The position numbers and the translations under genes are program-made. From Campylobacterota bacterium (GTDB taxonomy: Bacteria; Campylobacterota; Campylobacteria; Campylobacterales; Sulfurovaceae), in NCBI GenBank assembly GCA_011048515.1, contig DSDW01000134.1:9496-73495 (forward strand): 64,000 nt of DNA, given 5' to 3'. Every line of letters begins with the position of its first letter. Position 1 is the stretch's first letter. The notes beneath the pieces are model-generated. The model saw only the letters and a program-made list of their open reading frames with translations, was not told the DNA's origin and made no database searches. Of this stretch, positions 6,856 through 57,134 are shown piece after piece.

Positions 6856-8133
6856 CTACAAAGCCTTTACCAGCCTGATAAAGGTCTCTCCCCTGTCTTT
6901 GTAGGACTTGAACTGGTCGAAACTTGCCGCGGCAGGAGAGAGCAGCGCAATGGAATCCAGGGTATGTTCCCGGTCGATCGCGGCTACTGCCTTATCGATC
7001 GTTTTTGCCTCATGGGCTTCGATCCCATAGGTTCTTGCCAGATCCAGAAGCCTGTCATTGTTTGCTCCGATCGTATAGATCCTGATATCGCATCCCTGCA
7101 TGACCTCAAAGAGCGGAGCAAGGTCCACTCCTTTATCTTCTCCTCCGAGGATCAGATGTATTTTTTGGCCCTCAAACCCTTTGATCGCCTGGACCGCGGC
7201 ATCCAGGTTGGTTGCCTTGGAGTCGTTGATCCATACTCTTCCCTGAGCATCTTCTATTTTCTCCTGTCTGTGTCCATCGAGTTTGAAAGCGTTGATGCGG
7301 TCATAGTCGGCTTCATCAAAGAGCACTCTGGTGATCGCCAGTGCGAGCAGGGCATCCTGCAAAAAAGCACCCTTGAATGCAACCTGCCCGGCATCAAGAT
7401 AAAAGTACTCCTCTAAAAATGCGTTCTCGTCATACTCCACCACATAGGCAGGAGTGGGGGGTATATTCAGCCCTTTGGGGATCAGTGCAAGTTCGCCTTC
7501 CCGCATTGTTCTGAGCGGTGCGAGCTTGTCTGCCTCATACTGTTCAGGCGTGCCGTGCCAGTCAAGATGATCCGGTGTGATGGGGAGCAGTAGGTAGATG
7601 TTCGGGGAGGCGATCCTGGTATGATGCAGGGTAAAAGAGCTGGTTTCTAGCACCCAGATCGGCGCCTCTGGATCAAGCTCTGCCAGCGGCGTACCGATAT
7701 TGCCGCCGGATACCGCGCCGCGCTTCTCAAGCAGGTGTGTCAGCATCTGCGTAGTGGTGGTTTTGCCGTTGGTGCCGGAGATCCAGACAGTGAAAGGCTT
7801 TTGCCTTTCAAGTGAAGCGTTTCGGTTGACATTGCCTTGCAACGCTTCTATAAATTTGCTCTGTGCTCCTTGCTCCCTGCTCCCTAATATATAGTCATAT
7901 TCACTCATCAGGTTTTGAGCACTTTTGATAAGCGGGTGACCGGGCTTGAGACTGGGGGTGGTGACCTCCAGGGTGCTTGCTTCCGGGTCAAAAAGATGTG
8001 AAGGGAGGATCTGGTTGCCCGCTTCATCCACAGAGACTTCTTTGACATTGTCGTCAAAAAAAGTACAGCCTCCGCCAAGGCTTTTTGCGATCGCCCTGGT
8101 GGTCAGTCCGTATCCGAAAAGTGTAGGTTTCAT
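6856..8133 (-). CDS. murD: UDP-N-acetylmuramoyl-L-alanine--D-glutamate ligase, with an in-frame insertion of about 25 aa
   Basis: ISGTNGKTTTT, GGNIG, LETSSF, DHLDWH, NDSKATN, LSPAAASFDQF. Confidence 0.95.
   Translation of the reverse strand: MKPTLFGYGLTTRAIAKSLGGGCTFFDDNVKEVSVDEAGNQILPSHLFDPEASTLEVTTPSLKPGHPLIKSAQNLMSEYDYILGSREQGAQSKFIEALQGNVNRNASLERQKPFTVWISGTNGKTTTTQMLTHLLEKRGAVSGGNIGTPLAELDPEAPIWVLETSSFTLHHTRIASPNIYLLLPITPDHLDWHGTPEQYEADKLAPLRTMREGELALIPKGLNIPPTPAYVVEYDENAFLEEYFYLDAGQVAFKGAFLQDALLALAITRVLFDEADYDRINAFKLDGHRQEKIEDAQGRVWINDSKATNLDAAVQAIKGFEGQKIHLILGGEDKGVDLAPLFEVMQGCDIRIYTIGANNDRLLDLARTYGIEAHEAKTIDKAVAAIDREHTLDSIALLSPAAASFDQFKSYKDRGETFIRLVKAL
7791..7887 (-). repeat. heptamer array plus hairpins in frame within murD
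   Basis: Minus strand AGGGAGC AGGGAGC AAGGAGC ACAGAGC, then stems GAAGCGTT/AACGCTTC and TGAAAGGC/GCCTTTCA. Confidence 0.65.
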
Positions 8134-8353
8134 AAAAAACTCCGTTTTTTAAATGAGGAGTGAGGAGTGCGCCCGAACGAAGTGACAAGTGCTCTTGGGG
8201 TAAGGAGTGAGGAGTGTCGGCATGTTTTGTGTGACAAAACGTTTAGTCTGTTTTTCTTCATGGTTTTCTTTATTCCATCCAAATGTATAAATGTATCGTA
8301 GAGGCTTTTTGCGAAAAAAGCTTACCATAACTCTTCACTCTTAATTCTTCACT
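8131..8353. mobile_element. empty heptamer-array element between mraY and murD
   Basis: Inverted arrays (TGAGGAG)n at 8153-8216 and ACTCTTC-type at 8330-8353. The reverse complement of 8330-8353 is identical to 45020-45043. Confidence 0.7.
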
Positions 8354-32566: not shown

Positions 32567-33347
32567 GGAACTGACCCATGCATTTCGCAAGCATAAAGGC
32601 GTATTGACGCAAGAGCAGTATGAGCATATTGCCATCAGGCATACGACACTGCTGGAGGACGCCGATACAATTTTTATCCTTCTTCAGGCATCAGGCTATC
32701 CTATTTCACAAAGAGAAGAGAACCTTTACCAGCTGGACACCTACTTTACGCCGTATTATGAACAGCGCTACTGTGTCGTAGATATCGAGACCAACGGGAG
32801 CAAGCCTGGAGATTCTCAGGTCATTGAGATCGGTGCCGTACTGGTTCAAAACGGTAAGATCATCGACCGTTTTGAAACCTTTGTGGAGTGTGCTTTTTTG
32901 CCGGAGTATATCACGAAGATCACAGGGATTGAACCCCAGGACCTGATCGGTGCTCCCAGCAGAAAAGAGGCATTGACCAAACTGCGCCACTTCATGGGAG
33001 ATGCGGTCTTTGTCGCACACAATGCCAACTTTGATTATAATTTTCTTGGTGCCTCTTTTGAACGTTTCGGACTTGGCAATATCGGCAACCCGAAACTCTG
33101 TACGATCGATCTTGCCAGACGTACCTTCGAGTGCGAACGCTACGGTCTGTCGTATCTGATAGACTTTCTGGGAATTGATATGGCAACCCACCACAGGGCC
33201 TACAGCGATGCCTACTGCGCCTATCAGGTGATGAGAAAGAGTTTTATGACTGTACCTGAGTATGTCAGAAGTGCGGATGACCTGATCGTTTTTTCAACTT
33301 CCAGCAGGAAAGAGAGAAAAAAGCAGGGAGTAAGTAGCAGGGAGTAG
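32550..33347 (+). CDS. DEDDh 3'-5' exonuclease (DNA polymerase III epsilon-like)
   Basis: VDIETNG, VAHNANFD, HHRAYSDA. Confidence 0.9.
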   Translation: MQKVFEELTHAFRKHKGVLTQEQYEHIAIRHTTLLEDADTIFILLQASGYPISQREENLYQLDTYFTPYYEQRYCVVDIETNGSKPGDSQVIEIGAVLVQNGKIIDRFETFVECAFLPEYITKITGIEPQDLIGAPSRKEALTKLRHFMGDAVFVAHNANFDYNFLGASFERFGLGNIGNPKLCTIDLARRTFECERYGLSYLIDFLGIDMATHHRAYSDAYCAYQVMRKSFMTVPEYVRSADDLIVFSTSSRKERKKQGVSSRE

Positions 33348-33608
33348 GGAGCAGGTTAGGTAAGCATTTTTTAGAAAATGCTTTTATTTTAAGGTTTTGT
33401 TCATGTAATCCATGAAAAATTGCTACCGTGTGCCTACACGGCTTCGCTTCGCTACGACTTCGAGCTTACAAAAGCAAAGCTGTTTGCTTTTGCTTAACAG
33501 CTCTCACAGTTCCGTCGCTAAGATCGTGAAACTGTTCACGATCTTTATACGCTCCTCATCTGCTACCTACTTCCTTTTTACTTTTTACTTTTTACTTTTT
33601 ACTTTTTA
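33322..33608. mobile_element. empty heptamer-array element at a convergent junction
   Basis: AGCAGGG AGTAAGT AGCAGGG AGTAGGG AGCAGGT-TAGGTAAGC plus hairpin at left; (CTTTTTA)x5 at 33574-33608; several perfect internal stems. Confidence 0.65.
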
Positions 33609-34839: not shown

Positions 34840-36927
34840 TCAGCTCTCTTTGAGCAGCCGGTTTGCCAGACGGTGGACATAGTCCGGTGTCTCTTTTTGG
34901 GATTTGTTGTGAATCCTGTTGGTATACTCCTCAAGGATCTTATGGTTGTTGATCGATTTTCCGAGTACAGGCATTTTCACATAGTTGCCATCGGGCTGAA
35001 GCCTCCAGTTGAGGTTGTTGTCCGCCAGCTGGAGCATCAGTATCTGGATGATCTTTTGTGTCAGATGCTCTTCGCCGATCGGTGTCATGAGCTCCACACG
35101 CCTGATCAGGTTTCGCGGCATCAGGTCGGCACTGGCGATGTAGCATCTCGTCTTGGCATGTTTGAAGTAGTAGATACGCGGATGCTCAAGGTACTTGCCG
35201 ATGATGGAGTGTACCGCGATGTTCTCGCTCACCCCTTTGATCCCCGGTTTCAAACAGCAGATACCCCTGATGATCAGGTCGATCCTGCACCCCTCCTGAG
35301 AGGCTTTGTAGAGTGCCTTGATGATATCCTGGTCTACCAGTGAATTGGCTTTGAGGATCATATGCCCCTCTTGGCCGTGACGGCCCTCTCTTTCGATGAG
35401 GCGGAGCAGTTTGGGTTTGATCTGCGTAGGCGCCATGTAGAGCGTATCGAGTTTGGTATAGTTGGAGAATCCCGTCAGAAAATGGAAAAAGTTGGTTGCA
35501 TCCTTGACATAGCTCTCTTTGGCAGAGAAATAGGAGATATCCGTATAGATCTTTGCCGTGCTCGGATTGTAGTTCCCTGTCGCAAGATGTACGTAGCTCT
35601 GCAGTTTTTTGCCTTTGCGCTTGATCACCTGTGCGATCTTCGCATGGACTTTGAGCCCCGGGATCCCATAGACGACATGTGCGCCCACCTCTTCAAGCAG
35701 TTTTGCCCACCTGAGATTGTTCTCTTCGTCAAAGCGTGCTTTGAGTTCGACGAGTACCATGACCTGTTTACCGTCGCGTACCGCATCGATGAGCGCTTTG
35801 ACAATCGGTGATTTCGGGCCTGCGCGGTAGAGTGTCATACGGATCGCCAGTGTGTCGGGGTCCGCAGCCGCCTGCGAGATGAACTTGACGACGGGATCAA
35901 AACTGTCATAGGGGTGGTAGAGCAGGATATCCTGTTTCTCGATCGCCCCAAAGATATCTTCGCTGTCAAGCGGCGGAAGTATCTTCGGGGTGAAGGTCGG
36001 AAGCATAAGGTGCGAGAGCGAGGTTTCTCCTACGATCTGCCAGAGGCTTCCCAGGTCAAGCGGGATGGATTTGTAGAAGTAGATATCCTCCTGGTCAAGT
36101 TTCAAATAGGAGAGAAGGAACTTGACCAGGTCATTGTTCGCCCCGTCAAGCAGTTCAAGGCGGATGAATGAGCCCTTGTTTCTCGAACGCAGCCCCTCCT
36201 GCAGGATCTCGAGGAAATCATCGGCCTCCTCCTCCTCGATCTCGATATCGGCATTTCTTGTGACCCTGAACGGGGTGGAGGCGATGCACTTGAACCCCGG
36301 GAAGAGTTCCGAAGCAAAATACTCCACCACCGTGTCGATCGGCACGAAGGTATGGTCGATCTGTAGAAATCTCGGCAGCACGCGCGGGATACGGATCAGG
36401 CCGTGCTTGATCTGGTTGGAGTCATCCTTGAGGGTGAGCGCCAGGCCGAAGCTCAGGTTGTTGAGGTGGGGGAAAGGGTGGGTCGCATCGACAGCGATCG
36501 GGATGATCACCGGATAGATCTCATTGAAAAAGATCGCTTTGACCTCTTCCTGTTCCTGGTCGTTGAGCGCAGTGTAGTTTTTGATATTGACGCCGTGGGT
36601 ATAGAGCTCCGAGACGATAGAGTTGTAGCATGACTCAAGGATCAAATGCTCTTTATGGAGATAGTTGCGTATCTCCTCAAGCTGTTCGCCGGGGGTCAGT
36701 TTGTCCGGCCCTGTCTCCTGGATGCGCGCATCATAGAGCGACTTGAGCCCGGCGACGCGTATCATGTAGAACTCGTCAAGGTTGGTTCCGTAAATGGCGA
36801 TGAACTTCAGCCTCTCCAGCGGCGGCAGGTTCTCATCGAGCGCCTGTGCGAGTGCGCGGGAGTTGAACTGCAGCCATGAGAGCTCACGGTTAAAATAGAG
36901 TTGTGATGAATTCAGGTCCATTGACAT
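34840..36927 (-). CDS. ppk1: polyphosphate kinase 1
   Basis: YFNRELSWLQFN, NLDEFYMIRVAG, HHPY-like YHPYDSF, ELKARFDE, GLKVHAK, EHPRIYYF. Confidence 0.97.
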   Translation of the reverse strand: MSMDLNSSQLYFNRELSWLQFNSRALAQALDENLPPLERLKFIAIYGTNLDEFYMIRVAGLKSLYDARIQETGPDKLTPGEQLEEIRNYLHKEHLILESCYNSIVSELYTHGVNIKNYTALNDQEQEEVKAIFFNEIYPVIIPIAVDATHPFPHLNNLSFGLALTLKDDSNQIKHGLIRIPRVLPRFLQIDHTFVPIDTVVEYFASELFPGFKCIASTPFRVTRNADIEIEEEEADDFLEILQEGLRSRNKGSFIRLELLDGANNDLVKFLLSYLKLDQEDIYFYKSIPLDLGSLWQIVGETSLSHLMLPTFTPKILPPLDSEDIFGAIEKQDILLYHPYDSFDPVVKFISQAAADPDTLAIRMTLYRAGPKSPIVKALIDAVRDGKQVMVLVELKARFDEENNLRWAKLLEEVGAHVVYGIPGLKVHAKIAQVIKRKGKKLQSYVHLATGNYNPSTAKIYTDISYFSAKESYVKDATNFFHFLTGFSNYTKLDTLYMAPTQIKPKLLRLIEREGRHGQEGHMILKANSLVDQDIIKALYKASQEGCRIDLIIRGICCLKPGIKGVSENIAVHSIIGKYLEHPRIYYFKHAKTRCYIASADLMPRNLIRRVELMTPIGEEHLTQKIIQILMLQLADNNLNWRLQPDGNYVKMPVLGKSINNHKILEEYTNRIHNKSQKETPDYVHRLANRLLKES

Positions 36928-37196
36928 AAAAACTCCGTTTTTAAATTAAAAATTAAAAGGTAAAAACTAACAATCCAGACTCGTTCCCACTCTCCTGAGT
37001 GGGAATGCATATACAACATTTCAGAGTAAAGGGAGTCTATTCACTTTTATGTCGTTTTGTACGCATTCCATATCAGGAGATATGGAACGAGGCGGTGGCT
37101 CCACTTTTTATGATTTGAAAGGATTATAGCAAAATAAAAGCACTTTGACAAAAGTGGATACTAAAGTTTTTAATTTTTAATTTTTACTTGTTAATT
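36925..37196. mobile_element. empty heptamer-array element containing an inverted REP doublet
   Basis: ATTAAAA ATTAAAA GGTAAAA at 36945-36965; inverse array at 37165-37196; REP hairpins at 36980-37008 and 37063-37091. Confidence 0.65.
36980..37091. repeat. REP doublet (REPIN-like)
   Basis: CTCGTTCCCACTCTCCTGAGTGGGAATGC and an inverted copy CTCGTTCCATATCTCCTGATATGGAATGC with compensatory stem changes. Confidence 0.8.
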
Positions 37197-37207
37197 GATC
37201 AAAAAGC

Positions 37208-39181
37208 CTAGAGCTTTTTGATCTTGGCGATCTCATCGCGCAGCCTTGCCGCCTCTTCAAACTCAAGGTTTTTGGCCGCAACCAGCATCTTTGCCTTGAG
37301 CTCACCGATCACTTTCTGGCGTTCGGCTTTCGGCATCTTGTCGAGTTTGCTGCGTTTATTGTAGAGTTCACCCGCGTCTTCGACTTTGAGATCGGTATCA
37401 AGTACCCTGACCGTGGTTTGGGGGGTGATATTGTGCGCTTTGTTGTATGCCATCTGCTTCTGGCGTCTCGCCTGTGTGGTTTCGATCGTGGTCTTCATCG
37501 ACTCCGTCATCTTCTTGGCATACATCAGTACTTTCCCGTTGGCGTTTCTGGCCGCACGCCCGGAGGTCTGTATCAGCGAGGTGGTCGAGCGGAGGAACCC
37601 CTCTTTGTCCGCATCAAGGATCGCTACGAGGCTCACCTCGGGGAGGTCAAGCCCCTCCCTCAGCAGGTTGATCCCCACCAATATGTCAAATTCGCCCAGG
37701 CGGAGCGAACGGATCGTCTGGTTGCGTTCGATCGCATCCATCTCGGAGTGCATATAGCGCGCTTTCAGCCCAAGGTCATTGTAGTAGGTGGTCAGCTCTT
37801 CGGCCATCTTTTTGGTCAGTACCGTCACGAGTACCCGTTCTCCCCGTTCGATGACGGGTTTCATCCTGTCATGCAGGTCCTCCACCTGGTAGGTGCTGTC
37901 TATCACCTCTATCTCGGGATCGAGCAGCCCCGTGGGACGTACGACCTGTTCGGCAACGACGGAGGAGAGTTCCCCTTCGATCTGTGCCGGTGTGGCAGAG
38001 ACGAAAAGGTAGTGGGGCGCTTTGTTGATATACTCGTCAAATTTGAGCGGACGGTTATCCAGCGCCGAGGGGAGGCGGAAGCCGTGCTCCACCAGTACCT
38101 CCTTGCGGCTTCTGTCCCCTGCATACATACCGCGGAATTGGGGGAGGGAGACATGCGACTCATCGACGATCACCAGGTAGTCGTCATGCATCGCTTCGAA
38201 GTAGTCCATCATCGAGTAGGGGGTCTCCCCCGGTTTTTTGCCGGTAAGGTGGCGCGAGTAGTTCTCGATCCCCTTGCAGATCCCTGTCGCCTCCAGCATC
38301 TCAAGGTCGAACTCGGTACGCTGCTTGAGGCGGTTGTACTCTATCAGGCGCTCCTCTTTCTGGAAAAAGGCGAGCCTCTCGTCCAGCTCCTCCTCGATGC
38401 TTTTGATCGCTTTTGCCAGCTTCTCTTTCCCTACGATGAACTGGTTGGCGGAGTAGACCGTCACCTCTTTTTTGTGCTCCTCCTTCTCTCCGGTGAGCGA
38501 GTTGAAGGTGTAGATATCCTCGACTTCATCCCCGAAGAACTCCACACGGATGGCAAACTCCTCGGAGTAGGCGGGATAGATATCTACCACCTCCCCGCTG
38601 ACACGGAAGTTCCCCCGGTCAAAGTACTCGTCGTTGCGTTTGTAGCCCATATCGACCAGTTTGAGCAGCAGCGCTTTGCGGTCATGCTCCTCGCCGACAC
38701 AGAGTTTCTGGACGATGGTTTTGTAGTCCTCTGGCGAGCCCAGCCCGTAGTTGGCGGAGACCGAGGCGACGACGATCACATCATCGTGGCTGAGCAGCGA
38801 AGCGGTCGTAGAGAGCCTGAGGCGTTCGAGCTCCTGGTTGATCGAGCTGTCCTTCTCGATAAAGAGATCCTGCCTCGGCAGGTAGGCTTCGGGCTGGTAG
38901 TAGTCGTAGTAGCTGATAAAGTACTCGACATGGTTGTTAGGGAAGAAAGACTTGAACTCGCTGTAGAGCTGTGCGGCCAGCGTCTTGTTGTGCGTCATGA
39001 TCAGGGTCGGCTTCTGTGTCTTCTCGATCACTTTCGCCATCGTATAGGTCTTCCCCGAACCCGTCACCCCCAGCAGAGTCTGGTAGCGGTTGCCCGCAAG
39101 GATGGAACTGCTGAGCGCCTCGATCGCTCCCGGCTGGTCTCCGGAAGGCTGATAGGGACTGCTTACGGTAAAATTTTTCAA
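37208..39181 (-). CDS. uvrB: excinuclease ABC subunit B
   Basis: [48 protein letters not shown] domain [11 protein letters not shown]; likely start TTG 39181. Confidence 0.98.
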
Positions 39182-39202
39182 ATTCTCCCTTTCAAATTTA
39201 TA

Positions 39203-39721
39203 AGTAAAAATTAACAAGTAAAAAGTAAAAGTTTATGTAGATATTTTATTATACAACAGTTTTATTTTTGAGCCTTTTAAGACTGGATACAAGCAGACGG
39301 ATAATCTCTTTGATATCTTCTATAAGACTTTCAAACATTGCCTGCGTTATAAACTTGGTATCGTATAGTAAATTGATCCAATACTTTGTTTCATTTGCTT
39401 CTTTTAGACCTATGTTTAGTTTATTGATAAAGTCAGCATGAGACTGTGCGAACTCGGACTCAGATATCAATGCGCCGATCGATGTTCCTGACCGAAGAAT
39501 CTGTCTGCTTAATACATACTCTTTTTTCTCATTGTTGAGGTATTGAGACAGGTTTACTACTCTGATAGCAAATGCATAGGATTTAGAGTGCAATAAGTTC
39601 TCTTTTTTCATGTCAGAGTTTACCCATCTGTTATTTATTTATGAGTATTATAACGATAAAGGTTAAAAAGTGTTTTTAATTGTTACTTTTTACTTTTTAA
39701 TTTAAAAAACGGAGTTTTTTT
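39203..39721 (-). mobile_element. four-helix-bundle cassette bounded by inverted AGTAAAA-type heptamer arrays
   Basis: AGTAAAA ATTAACA AGTAAAA AGTAAAA at 39203-39230; inverse array at 39672-39702. Confidence 0.7.
39249..39611 (-). CDS. four helix bundle protein (TIGR02436; 23S rRNA IVP/Avd-like)
   Basis: QILRSGTSIGALISE...AQS..DFINKL...KEANETKYWI.LL family signature. Confidence 0.9.
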   Translation of the reverse strand: MKKENLLHSKSYAFAIRVVNLSQYLNNEKKEYVLSRQILRSGTSIGALISESEFAQSHADFINKLNIGLKEANETKYWINLLYDTKFITQAMFESLIEDIKEIIRLLVSSLKRLKNKTVV

Positions 39722-39940
39722 ATGTCAGCCTTACAAAGACTACAAGCGAAGATCGAGCAGTGGAGAGTGGATTTTGAAGCGCTCAAAAGCGAAAATGCAC
39801 AGTTGAAGGTCGAACTGCAAAATGCGAGCGGTTCCAAAGAGGAGCAGTCTGCAGAGATCGAACTGTTGAAGCTTGAACTGGAAGAGAAAGATGCGGAGAT
39901 CGAGAAGATCATTGCGCAGGTCGAATCTTTACTTGCGTAA
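39722..39940 (+). CDS. ZapB-like coiled-coil cell division protein
   Basis: 72 aa pure coiled coil upstream of a ZapA-like gene. Confidence 0.6.
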   Translation: MSALQRLQAKIEQWRVDFEALKSENAQLKVELQNASGSKEEQSAEIELLKLELEEKDAEIEKIIAQVESLLA

Positions 39941-39951
39941 AGACTCTCTTT

Positions 39952-40078
39952 AATTAACAATGAATAAGTAATAATTAATAATGAAAGTATGTGTTGCACG
40001 CAACACTTTCATTAAGTAAAAGCACTTCAACGAAGTGCATACAAAACTTATTAATTATTCACTATTAATTATTTATTC
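39952..40078. mobile_element. empty AT-rich heptamer-array element
   Basis: AATTAAC AATGAAT AAGTAAT AATTAAT AATGAAA at left, inverse array 40046-40078, two internal hairpins (GTGTTGC/GCAACAC; GCACTTC/GAAGTGC). Confidence 0.6.
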
Positions 40079-45019: not shown

Positions 45020-45510
45020 AGTGAAGAATTAAGAGTGAAGAGTGAAGAGTTTTGGTATGCTTTTCTTTTGAAAAGCTTTTTTTAAATCAGGAAATAAATG
45101 AGTATATTGGAAGAGAAAAGCTATGCTTTTTCGATTCGTATCGTGAAGTGTACACAGTATTTGCAAGATGATAAGAAAGAGTTTGTTCTAAGTAAACAGC
45201 TCATTCGTTCGGGTACAGCTGTGGGTGCATTGATCGCTGAGGCGAAATATGCACAATCGAAATCGGATTTTATCAATAAACTCTCAATAGCCGCCAAAGA
45301 AGGAAATGAGACCAAATATTGGCTGCGTCTTTTAAAAGATTGTAACTATCTTCAAGAAAAAAGTGCTATAAGTCTATTGGATGATATAGAGGGTCTCATC
45401 CGGATATTGGCATCAAGTATAAAAACTGCAAAAGAGAATAACTATGAAAAATAAAACACAAACGAAGTTTGTTTTCCAGCACTCTTCACTCTTCACTCTT
45501 CACTCTTCAT
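45020..45510 (+). mobile_element. four-helix-bundle cassette bounded by inverted AGTGAAG heptamer arrays
   Basis: AGTGAAG AATTAAG AGTGAAG AGTGAAG AGT at 45020-45050; (ACTCTTC)x4 at 45481-45508; a hairpin just inside each array. Confidence 0.8.
45098..45454 (+). CDS. four helix bundle protein (TIGR02436; 23S rRNA IVP/Avd-like)
   Basis: QLIRSGTAVGALIAEA..AQS..DFINKL.IA.KE.NETKYWL.LL; 60/110 identical to the 39249-39611 protein by hand alignment. Confidence 0.9.
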   Translation: MSILEEKSYAFSIRIVKCTQYLQDDKKEFVLSKQLIRSGTAVGALIAEAKYAQSKSDFINKLSIAAKEGNETKYWLRLLKDCNYLQEKSAISLLDDIEGLIRILASSIKTAKENNYEK

Positions 45511-51183: not shown

Positions 51184-51200
51184 CGGGGATCCCTTGTTTT

Positions 51201-51340
51201 AGTGAATAGTGAATAGTGAGGAGTGAAGAGTGTCGGTATGCACTGCTTTGTAGTGCCTTTAGTAAATAAAAGAGAAACAAAGCTCATTTTCAAAAACTCC
51301 TCTTCATTAATCGCTAATTTCTAACACTTCACTCCTCGCT
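51201..51340. mobile_element. empty heptamer-array element
   Basis: AGTGAAT AGTGAAT AGTGAGG AGTGAAG AGT-GTCGGTATGC plus hairpin; degenerate inverse end CACTTCACTCCTCGCT. Confidence 0.65.
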
Positions 51341-54922: not shown

Positions 54923-55501
54923 ATGAAAAACGAGATCAAGTCTTTTCAGCTTCATCCACTTGAAGATCCGAAGTTCATCACCGCCTCTCTTGCTACCTAT
55001 CAGCAAAACGGTGTTGCAAAGAGCTGGGAGATCGTAGAGGCGCACGACAGCGTTGCGATCCTGATCTACCACACAACAAAAGATGCGTTTGTGCTGGTAC
55101 GGCAGTTCAGGCCGGCGGTCTATATCAACAATCTTGACGGACTCACGATCGAGCTCTGTGCAGGTATCGTGGATAAAAATCTTTCGTTGCTGCATATCGC
55201 ATCGGAGGAGATAGAAGAGGAGTGCGGTTACCGTATAGACGTGAACCAGCTGGAAAAGATCACCTCTTTTTACACTTCAGTGGGCTTTGCAGGCAGCAAG
55301 CAGATGCTCTACTATACAGAGGTGGACGAAAGCATAAAAGTCTCCGAAGGCGGAGGCGTGGATGATGAACAGATCGAAGTGGTCTATCTGCCGGTTTCAG
55401 AAGCCAACGCTTTTATCTATGATGAAAAAGTGGCAAAAACACCGGGGTTGATTTTTGCCTTTATGTGGTGGTTTGGGAATAAATTGGAAATTAGAAATTA
55501 A
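54923..55501 (+). CDS. NUDIX hydrolase (nucleoside diphosphate-sugar pyrophosphatase, NudF/NudK-like)
   Basis: LVRQFRPAV, ELCAGIVD...EEIEEECG Nudix box. Confidence 0.88.
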   Translation: MKNEIKSFQLHPLEDPKFITASLATYQQNGVAKSWEIVEAHDSVAILIYHTTKDAFVLVRQFRPAVYINNLDGLTIELCAGIVDKNLSLLHIASEEIEEECGYRIDVNQLEKITSFYTSVGFAGSKQMLYYTEVDESIKVSEGGGVDDEQIEVVYLPVSEANAFIYDEKVAKTPGLIFAFMWWFGNKLEIRN

Positions 55502-55577
55502 AAATTTTGGGCATTTCTTCAGGTTAAAGAGTAAAGAAGTGGGAATAAAAAATACTCCTAACTCCCCTAACTCTACT
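55482..55577. repeat. degenerate heptamer-array element at a convergent junction
   Basis: AATTGGA AATTAGA AATTAAA AAT (contains the Nudix stop) and ACTCCTA ACTCCCC TAACTCT ACT (contains the globin stop). Confidence 0.45.
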
Positions 55578-57057: not shown

Positions 57058-57134
57058 AATGTTAAAAGCCAAACATATCGTGAGGTGTGGACGGAAAGCT
57101 ATGGGTCTCAGGGAAGATCGCCAGGCTGCACATT
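57058..57134 (+). ncRNA. c-di-GMP-I (GEMM) riboswitch aptamer (cis-regulatory)
   Basis: P1 AATGT/ACATT; CCAAAC-ATATC-GTGA-GGTGT-GGACGGAAAGC (GNRA loop, conserved GAC and AAA); P3 GGTCT/AGATC then GCCAGGCTGC; C21-G46 covariation relative to Vc2. Confidence 0.85.

Follow-up and report, generated by a model that had tools for sequence, protein, structure and literature searches.

A PF05635 four-helix-bundle gene between complementary heptamer arrays upstream of uvrB: a candidate mobile cassette of the 23S rRNA intervening-sequence kind

Introduction

The PF05635 family comprises thousands of proteins and two crystal structures, and it was first seen in the intervening sequences (IVSs) of rRNA in 1993; to our knowledge, its proteins are still without a function. 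Members of the family known as S23p are encoded within the 23S rRNA IVSs of Leptospira, Coxiella burnetii, Xanthomonas and Brucella. These elements of about 0.45–0.5 kb sit in helix 25 or 45 of the 23S gene, and their ORF lies between inverted termini that pair as a stem of some 28–30 bp. In Coxiella, the S23p ORF is enclosed by a 28-bp terminal stem that is cut by RNase III, and the 5′ arm carries at the cut two to three tandem copies of GACAGAT, in a number that differs between strains (PMC4990558). The authors reported no sign of S23p production in vivo, and located rRNA IVSs in hairpin loops (PMC4990558). The heptamers have been handled in the literature as a detail of Coxiella and not as a rule of the family.

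Three other systems invite comparison. Avd of the diversity-generating retroelements is a basic pentameric barrel that acts as a nucleic acid-bound component of a ribonucleoprotein; heptamer arrays are not described for Avd loci. The REPIN-RAYT systems are alike in outline, with a small gene set between short repeats in inverted orientation that are specific to the genome; further inverted pairs of that repeat, with no gene, are dispersed in large numbers through intergenic spacers. The TRAP-type ring RNA-binding regulators offer an analogy only, with no homology: an oligomeric ring is matched by a corresponding number of tandem repeats, placed in leaders beside ribosome-binding sites.

Tandem heptamers have also been described with no explanation attached. 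PMC4692102 reports intergenic GGGAATC pairs in Xanthomonas, with 70–75 convergent array pairs per genome, GGGGA(C/T)T in Nostoc, and an over-representation of heptamer repeats in bacteria generally; PMC4679880 reports TAACTGA arrays in Beggiatoaceae, cyanobacteria and Bacteroidetes, and proposes a post-transcriptional regulatory network in Beggiatoa. These arrays resemble those treated here in being tandem 7-nt repeats of few copies in intergenic DNA, often as convergent pairs or ending just before start codons, with a distribution that suggests horizontal spread. A term search within both papers returned no link between PF05635 and heptamer arrays. The literature searched contained no published generalisation of such arrays in the PF05635 family, only the Coxiella note and the papers on unexplained heptamers.

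Here we describe a PF05635 gene, with its arrays, upstream of uvrB in a Campylobacterota bacterium of the Sulfurovaceae. We propose, as a reading with close to an even chance of being right, that this unit (cassette 1) is a mobile cassette of the 23S rRNA IVS (S23p) kind, with clade-specific cis arrays that are putatively read by its own pentamer and that may also form an RNase III-type stem.

The Cassette Upstream of uvrB

The window, i.e., the whole stretch of 64,000 nucleotides that was analysed, contains two cassettes of this type. The locus of cassette 1 has the following features:

37208–39181, minus strand: uvrB, co-directional with cassette 1 and directly downstream of it
39202–39230: gene-downstream array of cassette 1, pyrimidine-rich on the gene strand, CTTTTACTTTTTACTTGTTAATTTTTACTT (TRF and inverted-repeat search)
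39249–39611, minus strand: cassette 1 gene, encoding a 120-aa four-helix-bundle (4HB) protein (PF05635 / TIGR02436, "S23p"; ORF and profile matches)
39646–39653, unstranded: palindromic −10-like box, TATTATAA/TTATAATA (orthology)
[quoted passage not shown]
39722–39940, plus strand: divergent 72-aa coiled-coil gene, conserved in Sulfurovum, the far-side marker of the insertion site

The initial annotation had described an AT-rich gene of 120 aa, and both points hold: the ORF has this length, and the cassette is 30% G+C in a window of 47.7%. The protein is basic (pI 9.45). PF05635 was the sole family matched in the profile search (93.8 bits, cut-off 33.8), and the TIGR02436 profile HMM scored about 102 bits (102.2; cut-off 24). 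The AF2 model (pLDDT 94.4) has four helices, and its closest Foldseek match is 2RLD (BT_0352; TM 0.85–0.98, 60% identity), with 2GSC at TM 0.70–0.88; the entries of both solved relatives hold five chains. The fold is also common to Avd (4DWL and 8UBE, TM 0.72–0.85), to which the protein is distantly related in sequence (Avd model NF033474, E 0.007), but the score of 16.7 bits is far under the equivalog cut-off of 80, and the genes directly next to the cassettes included no reverse transcriptase. In strains X4 and X5 the gene has lost 5 nt, so that it is dispensable, in the short term at least. In the single RNA run of the matching metatranscriptome study, the cassette 1 locus was without coverage.

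The two arrays were found by TRF as period-7 repeats at 39202–39230 (AAGTAAA, 4.1 copies) and 39673–39703 (4.4 copies). The inverted-repeat search aligned arms at 39190–39224 and 39673–39707 (35 nt, 86%) and, in a second alignment, at 39208–39233 and 39678–39703 (26 nt, 88%). A hand count had put the in-register pairing at 23 of 28 positions; the best 28-nt register has 24 of 28 complementary, while composition-preserving shuffles (n = 500) reached a maximum of 22. The left array reads AGTAAAA ATTAACA AGTAAAA AGTAAAA, with the variant second unit that the initial annotation had pointed out. Its comparison with cassette 2 was equally accurate: AATTAAG is again a variant in the second position, and the heptamer itself is AGTGAAG instead of AGTAAAA. 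Cassette 2 spans 45020–45509:

45020–45050, plus strand: upstream array, AGTGAAG AATTAAG AGTGAAG AGTGAAG (TRF)
45098–45454, plus strand: cassette 2 gene, 118 aa, between priA and the next gene (ORF and homology)
45480–45509, plus strand: downstream array, CACTCTT in 4.3 copies (TRF)

The proteins of the two cassettes are paralogues (51% identity, phmmer E 5.6e-40).

The array at 39202–39230 is located between the stop codon of the cassette 1 gene and the ribosome-binding site of uvrB. The start of uvrB is most likely the TTG at 39181, judged by the match to orthologues, and not the position 39217 of the mechanical ORF list; the left array would then be noncoding. The array at 39673–39703 is, on the plus strand, within the 5′ leader of the 72-aa gene. 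The −10-like box, which lies within cassette 1 in the window, is conserved as TTATAATAGCG at orthologous sites, filled and empty, and may be the shared promoter of the 4HB-uvrB unit (minus strand) and the 72-aa gene (plus strand); a consensus promoter scan did not pick up the box. In the window, and also in L097 and L036, this putative −10 box is downstream of the upstream array, and a single transcript may thus never contain both arrays of cassette 1.

Heptamer Arrays across the Family

About 130 relatives were collected, from a broad sub-family that shares about 54% identity or more with cassette 1 and covers about 10 phyla. It had been considered that most homologues might lack arrays. This is not what was found: of the 82 homologous cassettes, which come from about 10 phyla as well as from viral contigs and plasmids, 80 have a period-7 array, and TRF reported one in 137 of 159 flanks, with no array of another period. 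At a score of at least 10, period 7 was found in 50 upstream and 57 downstream flanks of 77; other periods reached this score in 0–1 flanks, and control segments in 1 of 141. The two arms of a cassette match each other (median score 17) far better than do arms of different loci (8). Polarity is also conserved, with the upstream array purine-rich in 59 of 62 cases and the downstream array pyrimidine-rich in 59 of 65. The arrays have 4–5 units (median 4.4), with no dependence on G+C (rho 0.02), and 50 of 65 fit the consensus A-R-T-K-A-R-N at 6/6 positions, vs. 10–17% of shuffled heptamers. On the N. punctiforme plasmid pNPUN01, a 4HB gene lies between AGGTCGG arrays. Bacteroides FopS sRNAs were considered as the identity of the arrays and rejected as unrelated.

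Most cassettes run in the direction of their neighbours (upstream in 65 of 76, downstream in 70 of 76) and most spacers to the neighbours are shorter than about 100 nt. In a Bacteroides relative the cassette is co-transcribed with its neighbours: contigs of an RNA run, silent on transcript ends, cover the upstream gene, the cassette and the downstream gene. A specific association with uvrB across phyla was rejected, with uvrB being a neighbour only in the Sulfurovum and Nitratifractor loci.

This arrangement could be taken to mean that the arrays matter solely as the arms of an RNase III stem. The protein would then not read them, its function being unrelated or absent, and period 7 would be a by-product of slippage or conversion between the arms. 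The Coxiella work is in line with this reading, both in the RNase III excision of the S23p-bearing IVS and in the missing evidence for S23p in vivo (PMC4990558). So are the co-directional placement between genes and the arm of about 30 bp regardless of G+C, which would fit a length-measuring dsRNA enzyme. The arms also pair in minimum-free-energy folds (z −1.9 for cassette 1 and −5.3 for cassette 2), and for cassette 1 in the centroid as well. Still, we consider a processing stem alone unlikely. Period 7 and A-R-T-K-A-R-N, both near-universal, are more than such a stem would need. Mismatches in the arms have no G.U excess over A.C (71 vs. 80, p = 0.5), and nothing here indicates selection for pairing of the sense RNA specifically. 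The protein shows strong conservation (28 alignment columns do not vary across phyla); the arms of cassette 1 are probably in separate transcripts; and arrays also occur singly and unpaired, as in the L097 spacer.

Occupancy, Clades and Mobility

The initial annotation had suggested independent acquisitions and, possibly, co-variation of protein and array, and both suggestions gained support. A cassette occupies the uvrB site in the window and in L001, L003, L004, L006, L097 and L099, and the site is empty in L091–L096 and L098, with filled and empty sites interleaved among Sulfurovum lineages. The divergence between filled and empty sites is too great for junctions or a target-site duplication to be placed. 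Cassette 1 has no transposase, and no catalytic mobility gene was found in or near the cassettes. On this point cassette 1 is unlike REPIN-RAYT: its 120-aa product is a helical bundle in which no catalytic domain is recognised, and not a Y1 (IS200/IS605-like) transposase, and its repeats are tandem heptamer arrays where those of REPIN-RAYT are single palindromes.

Protein distance and heptamer distance are related, with a Spearman coefficient of 0.46 over 97 elements (0 of 1000 permutations) and of 0.21 for cross-phylum pairs only (0 of 2000 within-phylum permutations). The cassette-2-type relatives, which were gathered by a metagenome scan, give the clearest view. All 12 of these proteins (pairwise identity 69–100%) go with AGTGAAG, and they do so at two sites, priA and mraY-murD, whose labels are interleaved within the clade; at the mraY-murD site, proteins of another clade (about 56% identity) go with AATGAGT. 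The heptamer type thus tracks the protein clade and not the genome site. It is worth pointing out that co-inheritance of gene and arrays as a single mobile unit would equally yield this co-variation, and that the dialects can stem from gene conversion among arrays.

These data bear on a very different possibility, namely that the host generates the array pairs as slippage-prone repeats or hairpins and that the 4HB gene merely prefers the loop between them. Gene-less pairs with short loops are indeed common in carrier genomes, rRNA IVSs occupy hairpin loops (PMC4990558), and heptamer repeats are over-represented in bacteria according to PMC4692102. We nevertheless hold this insertion preference to be very improbable: at the uvrB locus the empty sites are free of arrays and the filled ones have gene plus arrays, the heptamer at a given site follows the protein clade, and the AATTAAG variant unit travels with most of the cassette-2 clade.

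A further alternative is a host regulon. Under that explanation the protein is a post-transcriptional regulator, its heptamer operators evolve in many leaders, its own flanks included, and the cassette look reflects autoregulation. murD, ppk, the 72-aa gene and uvrB do each have a pyrimidine-rich array directly 5′ of the ribosome-binding site; arrays are able to bracket an ancestral spacer (uvrB-ppk); synteny of the cassettes is long-lived within families; and a network of this kind was proposed for the Beggiatoa TAACTGA repeats (PMC4679880). Against these stand the close relatives that differ in having or lacking a cassette at one and the same site, one clade at different sites and one site with different clades, protein identities of 65–83% across phyla, the copies on viral contigs and plasmids, the frameshifted copy in related strains, and neighbours that are diverse housekeeping genes with, by eye, no obvious common functional theme. 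A regulon of the host in place of a selfish element therefore seems to us distinctly unlikely.

Arrays without a Gene

The window has further arrays, gene-less pairs among them:

8154–8353, minus strand: gene-less array pair in the mraY-murD spacer, cassette-2 dialect
33322–33608, plus strand: hybrid pair of an AGCAGGG/AGTAAGT array and a CTTTTTA array of five units, with no 4HB gene within
36943–37197, minus strand: gene-less array pair bracketing the uvrB-ppk spacer, cassette-1 dialect (TRF)
39951–40077, plus strand: mini-element of two arrays (AATTAAC/AATGAAT/AAGTAAT...) around two terminator-like hairpins
51200–51335, plus strand: gene-less pair, cassette-2 dialect (AGTGAAT/AGTGAGG/AGTGAAG ... 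with a degenerate partner)
55481–55570, plus strand: AAATTGG/AAATTAG/AAATTAA array with a weak pyrimidine-rich partner

The array at 8330–8353 is identical to the upstream array of cassette 2, the AATTAAG unit included, and relatives have an intact 4HB cassette at this mraY-murD site. Remnants of a 4HB gene were sought inside the gene-less pairs and none was found (best E 0.56), so these pairs are not simple pseudogenes. Within the uvrB-ppk spacer are a small TIR element and a site resembling a promoter, and arrays are absent from this spacer in relatives; since the pair brackets an ancestral promoter and no cargo, a simple cut-and-paste unit does not account for it. The mini-element has an orthologue in L099 in a different dialect, and its arrays there (AATTAGA) carry the heptamer of L099's own cassette. 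More generally, distant arrays resemble the cassette type of their own genome (mean distance 1.56 vs. 2.38, 0 of 5000 permutations). Among known RNA families, Rfam matched only a c-di-GMP riboswitch elsewhere in the window, and no rRNA.

Proposed Mechanism and Significance

Returning to the mobile-cassette reading, cassette 1 would be a compact, horizontally mobile intergenic module lodged in the uvrB leader, between protein-coding genes, unlike the rRNA IVSs with which it has the PF05635 protein, the size and the inverted termini in common. Its layout would run from a purine-rich array through a basic 4HB gene, whose solved relatives are pentameric, to a complementary pyrimidine-rich array. 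The arrays would be part of the unit and move with the gene, each protein lineage having one heptamer word, a variant of A-R-T-K-A-R-N. The protein ring may read its own arrays in single-stranded form, one heptamer per subunit, which would account for the 4–5 units per array; as in the TRAP analogy, such binding is hypothetical. Recognition could serve autoregulation, propagation or both, and propagation would account for the gene-less arrays of the same dialect in other spacers. Where both arrays are in one transcript, they may form a stem some 30 bp long that RNase III would cut out as in the rRNA IVSs, possibly at the uvrB locus too, and such excision would make insertion inside operons tolerable. 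Transposition, by a mechanism of any kind, is likewise our inference.

A bolder version, which we advance as possible rather than probable, is that tandem heptamers are read sequence-specifically by PF05635 pentamers, and that the gene and its dispersed cognate arrays, with a different 7-nt word in each lineage, make up a self-propagating two-part system that would invade operon spacers, rRNA hairpins, phages and plasmids across bacteria. If true, this view would offer one explanation for the rRNA IVSs, the bacterial excess of heptamers, and the arrays of Xanthomonas, Nostoc and Beggiatoa, and the protein with its short repeat would form a programmable-looking pair.

For the PF05635 sub-family, the finding is that complementary arrays are almost always present, that their polarity and unit number are constant, and that their word differs by lineage and tracks the protein and not the site, and the label "function unknown" becomes a testable hypothesis of a pentamer that reads 5 × 7 nt. 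For the annotation of the window, about a dozen odd intergenic repeats are accounted for, and the leaders of uvrB, murD, ppk and neighbouring genes are seen to be remodelled by array elements.

The Cassette Upstream of uvrB and Its Paralogue

The initial annotation had placed a 120-aa four-helix-bundle (4HB) gene between inverted arrays in front of uvrB, and profile matches, repeat detection and the alignment of the two arms confirmed this arrangement. Its elements, and those of a paralogous cassette beside priA, are as follows:

39202-39230, cassette 1 left array, period 7 (Tandem Repeats Finder, TRF)
39249-39611, minus strand, cassette 1 4HB gene (120 aa)
39673-39703, cassette 1 right array, period 7 (TRF)
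45020-45050, cassette 2 array
45098-45454, cassette 2 4HB gene, paralogue of cassette 1 (51% identity)
45480-45509, cassette 2 array

The cassette 1 protein is a member of PF05635 ('23S rRNA-intervening sequence protein', 93.8 bits, cut-off 33.8) and TIGR02436 ('four helix bundle protein', 102 bits, cut-off 24), and it is basic, with a pI of 9.45. Among solved structures the closest is BT_0352 from Bacteroides thetaiotaomicron (2RLD, five chains; E 7.5e-38). The AlphaFold model, with four helices and a pLDDT of 94, superposes on 2RLD (TM about 0.9, 60% identity) and on 2GSC (Xcc0516), with a looser fit to the structures 4DWL and 8UBE of the DGR protein Avd.

The two arrays are mutually inverted (35 nt at 86%, or 26 nt at 88%). 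Their best 28-nt register pairs at 24 of 28 positions, the maximum in 500 shuffles being 22. The left array reads AGTAAAA ATTAACA AGTAAAA AGTAAAA, with the variant second unit just as it had been read at the outset. Comparison with orthologues puts the uvrB start most likely at the TTG at 39181, and this array would thus be intergenic. Cassette 2 carries AGTGAAG AATTAAG AGTGAAG AGTGAAG on one side and four copies of CACTCTT on the other.

Period-7 Arrays across the Family

Eighty genomic loci encoding proteins 54-80% identical were fetched from Campylobacterota, Bacteroidota, Gammaproteobacteria, Cyanobacteria, Chloroflexota, Patescibacteria, Planctomycetota, Acidobacteriota, Nitrospirota, Verrucomicrobiota and Desulfobacterota. 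Self-similarity at offset 7, measured over 120 nt on each side of the gene, scored at least 10 in 50 of 77 upstream and 57 of 77 downstream flanks; any other period from 3 to 12 reached that score in 0-1 flanks. At offset 7 itself, one of 141 control segments taken from these loci and none of the 154 shuffled flanks reached it. Absence of arrays from most homologs would have counted against the initial annotation, yet by TRF a period-7 array is present in 80 of the 82 cassettes (137 of 159 flanks). Such arrays belong to the family and not to the cassette 1 locus alone.

These arrays share further features. Arms within one cassette resemble each other (median score 17) far more than arms from different loci do (8). 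Read along the sense strand of the gene, 59 of 62 upstream arrays are purine-rich and 59 of 65 downstream arrays pyrimidine-rich. Unit counts cluster around 4-5 (median 4.4) and are independent of G+C (rho 0.02; medians 4.1-4.6 across all G+C classes). Once rotated, the heptamers have a common consensus, A-R-T-K-A-R-N, whose six defined positions are all fitted by 50 of 65, compared with 10-17% of shuffled or composition-matched heptamers.

The same gene-plus-array package is found on ten viral contigs (AATTGAC, AGTTAGG, AATTCGT, AATGAGT and others), and on the Nostoc punctiforme plasmid pNPUN01 a 41%-identical member lies between AGGTCGG/AAGTCGG arrays. A copy on a Treponema megaplasmid has G+C-rich arrays. 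In Treponema saccharophilum pTS1 a gene-less purine/pyrimidine pair (L101:1060-1175) lies directly upstream of the 4HB gene, so that a pyrimidine-rich array precedes that gene, an exception to the usual polarity. Two near-identical viral cassettes (L089 and L090) differ by one CTCATTA unit in their downstream arrays, showing copy-number change by slippage.

The Heptamer Word Follows the Protein Lineage

Among 65 elements, protein distance and heptamer distance had a Spearman correlation of 0.24 overall and 0.21 for cross-phylum pairs only (0/2000 permutations within phyla). Searching metagenomes with the cassette-2 protein added 67 loci, for 126 elements in all, and in the 97 with strong arrays the correlation was 0.46 (0/1000). 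The co-variation of protein and array suggested in the initial annotation is thus borne out.

The cleanest test is a natural experiment at two Sulfurovum sites, between priA and the next gene and between mraY and murD. All 12 members of the Sulfurovum cassette-2 clade (pairwise identity 69-100%) carry AGTGAAG, usually with the variant second unit AATTAAG, and they occupy both sites, whose labels are mixed in the identity matrix; cassette 2 of the window is 82% identical to a murD-site copy, compared with 70-81% to other priA-site copies. The mraY-murD site also hosts another clade, about 56% identical, which uses AATGAGT (L058, L119, L120, L124). The words of the cassette-1 clade at the uvrB site are AATTAAA/AGTAAAA, AATTAGG or AATTAGA. 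The heptamer word tracks protein lineage rather than site, and the alternative of no relation between clade and array type does not describe these data.

Gene-Less Arrays and Genome Dialects

Eleven arrays in the window score at least 10 at period 7, compared with 0-2 at any other period. Several form pairs without any trace of a 4HB gene inside, and a near-identical leader is joined to the pyrimidine array at three unrelated genes:

8154/8330, gene-less pair, mraY-murD spacer
33322/33574, gene-less pair
36943/37167, gene-less pair, uvrB-ppk spacer
39951/40048, gene-less pair around two terminator-like hairpins
51200, gene-less pair
55481, gene-less pair
8113-8133, minus strand, leader TTTAAAAAACGGAGTTTTTT-ATG of a murD-like gene
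36907-36927, minus strand, the same leader at ppk
39704-39724, plus strand, the same leader at the 72-aa gene

Array-free relatives have different leaders at both ppk and the 72-aa gene, so a portable ribosome-binding site seems to accompany the array.

The gene-less arrays use the dialects (heptamer types) of the two cassettes and a G-rich third, AGCAGGG, for which the window holds no cognate 4HB gene. The array at 8330-8353 is identical to the cassette-2 upstream array, and since relatives have an intact cassette-2-type gene at the mraY-murD site, this pair is a gene-less derivative. The uvrB-ppk pair encloses an ancestral promoter region that is array-free in relatives, which indicates that the two ends of a spacer can each acquire an array separately. 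For 45 distant arrays in 19 loci, the mean distance was 1.56 to the heptamer of their own cassette and 2.38 to those of other loci (0/5000).

The mini-element at 39951/40048, after the 72-aa gene, has an orthologue in L099 with the same two hairpins; its arrays are AATTAGA there, the L099 cassette dialect, and AATTAAC/AAGTAAT in the window. The element is polymorphic. The contig of metagenome strain X4 joins 39982 directly to sequence matching about 40078 onward, missing both hairpins and the right array (39983-40077), and in L097 the spacer contains just one array, which is pyrimidine-rich.

Other features were seen alongside. The uvrB-ppk pair contains a strong sigma-70-like site facing ppk (37123-37151, minus strand; TTGTCA, 17 nt, TG-TATAAT, 11/12), and the same spacer holds an element of about 130 nt (36978-37108) with terminal inverted repeats CTCGTTCCCACTCTCCTGAGTGGGAATGCAT ... 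ATGCATTCCATATCAGGAGATATGGAACGAG, present in the same place in L094-L096 and absent from L091-L093, which looks like an unrelated MITE. The hybrid pair at 33322-33608 (left AGCAGGG/AGTAAGT/AGTAGGG, right five CTTTTTA) can pair only through G.U, hence only as plus-strand RNA, the sole such case seen. A G-rich dialect array at 7857-7885 (TGCTCCC-type; AGCAGGG on the other strand) lies within the murD-like ORF 6856-8133 (minus strand), which means that it is translated or that this part of the gene model is in error. A c-di-GMP-I-GGC riboswitch aptamer lies at 57059-57134 on the plus strand (RF03167, 60.2 bits against 59).

Filled and Empty uvrB Sites

Sulfurovum genomes conserve the order ppk and uvrB, both leftward, followed by the 72-aa and 73-aa genes, both rightward. 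Seven sites (L091-L096, L098) are empty: uvrB and the 72-aa gene are just 70-90 nt apart, and the spacer has a shared palindromic -10 box (gcTATTATAAcac / gtgTTATAATAGCG) and no arrays. The site is filled in the window, L097, L099, L001, L003, L004 and L006, and in Nitratifractor (L027, L036) a cassette is also directly upstream of uvrB. Ranked by identity of the 72-aa protein to that of the window, the states run 94% filled (L097), 86% empty, 82% empty, 81% filled, 79-81% empty and 75-76% filled; such interleaving implies repeated gain or loss.

The entire cassette lies within the uvrB leader in L001, L003, L004, L006 and L099, where the -10 box is followed in turn by the purine array, the gene, the pyrimidine array and the uvrB ribosome-binding site. 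The window, L097 and L036 instead have this box inside the cassette, after the upstream array and before the gene; if the box is the promoter, the cassette 1 arrays would belong to different, divergent transcripts, each just 5' of a ribosome-binding site. In assembler contigs of two metagenome strains (X4, X5) the flanking genes differ from the window by 3-8%, with zero substitutions between 39150 and 39745 and with 5 nt deleted from the 4HB gene at window position 39363, a lead compatible with recent cassette exchange and gene decay.

Transcription and a Possible Mechanism

Both neighbours are mostly co-directional with the 4HB gene (upstream 65/76 loci, downstream 70/76). Spacers are mostly under about 100 nt, with hardly any room besides the arrays, and many loci are syntenic within a family. 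By eye, the neighbours (murA, argC, tpiA, tilS, HIT-family, etfA, glgC, hsdM/S and others) have no obvious common theme. In a Bacteroides with the exact L064 locus, RNA-seq contigs span from the upstream gene through the cassette to the downstream gene, so the cassette is transcribed together with its neighbours there, although contigs are blind to processing sites. Several other contigs carry the L064 array, some as close inverted pairs; the dialect is therefore dispersed in that genome. Three contigs of the RNA runs (X21, X25, X29) join L064:2945-2980 to 3359 onward, purine array abutting pyrimidine array as though exactly the 378-nt gene were skipped. Because the upstream flank differs from L064, this is most likely a gene-less paralogous pair elsewhere in the genome, not an excision product.

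An element of this kind in the 23S rRNA of Coxiella has terminal repeats that form a 28-bp stem, which RNase III cuts at the first of 2-3 GACAGAT heptamers (PMC4990558). Pairing in RNA is favoured by the co-directional placement between genes and by predicted folds with the arms as closing stem (z = -5.3 for cassette 2, z = -1.9 for cassette 1). Several points speak against such pairing being the whole story. A stem requires neither a period nor a conserved word; arm mismatches have no G.U excess (71 G.U vs 80 A.C), single arrays occur, and the cassette 1 arms are probably in different transcripts. The elements move among sites and hosts as a package with a set polarity and unit count, their word is clade-specific, and their dialects are genome-wide. 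A stem leaves unexplained the strict period 7, the conserved word, the 4-5 units, the strand polarity and the dialects.

We favour, at slightly less than an even chance, a combined model in which the arrays would be cognate sites of the cassette's own protein and, where co-transcribed, would pair into an RNase III-type stem. The basic protein, as a homo-pentamer, would read one heptamer per subunit on one strand; the strict period, the word conserved with the protein, the 4-5 units at any G+C, the polarity and the dialects all fit such a reading. A stem-only model, a host regulon and an insertion preference are the rivals to this combined model.

Relation to Known Systems

Cassette 1 works like an rRNA intervening sequence (IVS), but its location is not the one by which an IVS is defined. 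Its protein is a relative of Avd rather than an Avd itself: the match to the Avd profile is below the cut-off, and no reverse transcriptase gene is among the immediate neighbours. The arrangement is alike in outline to REPIN-RAYT, from which it differs by its non-enzymatic protein and tandem heptamers; the cassette contains no catalytic gene. Two papers describe intergenic heptamer arrays, often paired or beside start codons and left unexplained, in Xanthomonas and Nostoc (PMC4692102) and in Beggiatoaceae (PMC4679880), and a term search of both found no mention of the PF05635 family. A search of full texts, mostly of papers free of subscription, found no published statement of a general 4HB-heptamer association. 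The points of interest are the family-wide array rule and the coupling of heptamer word to protein clade.
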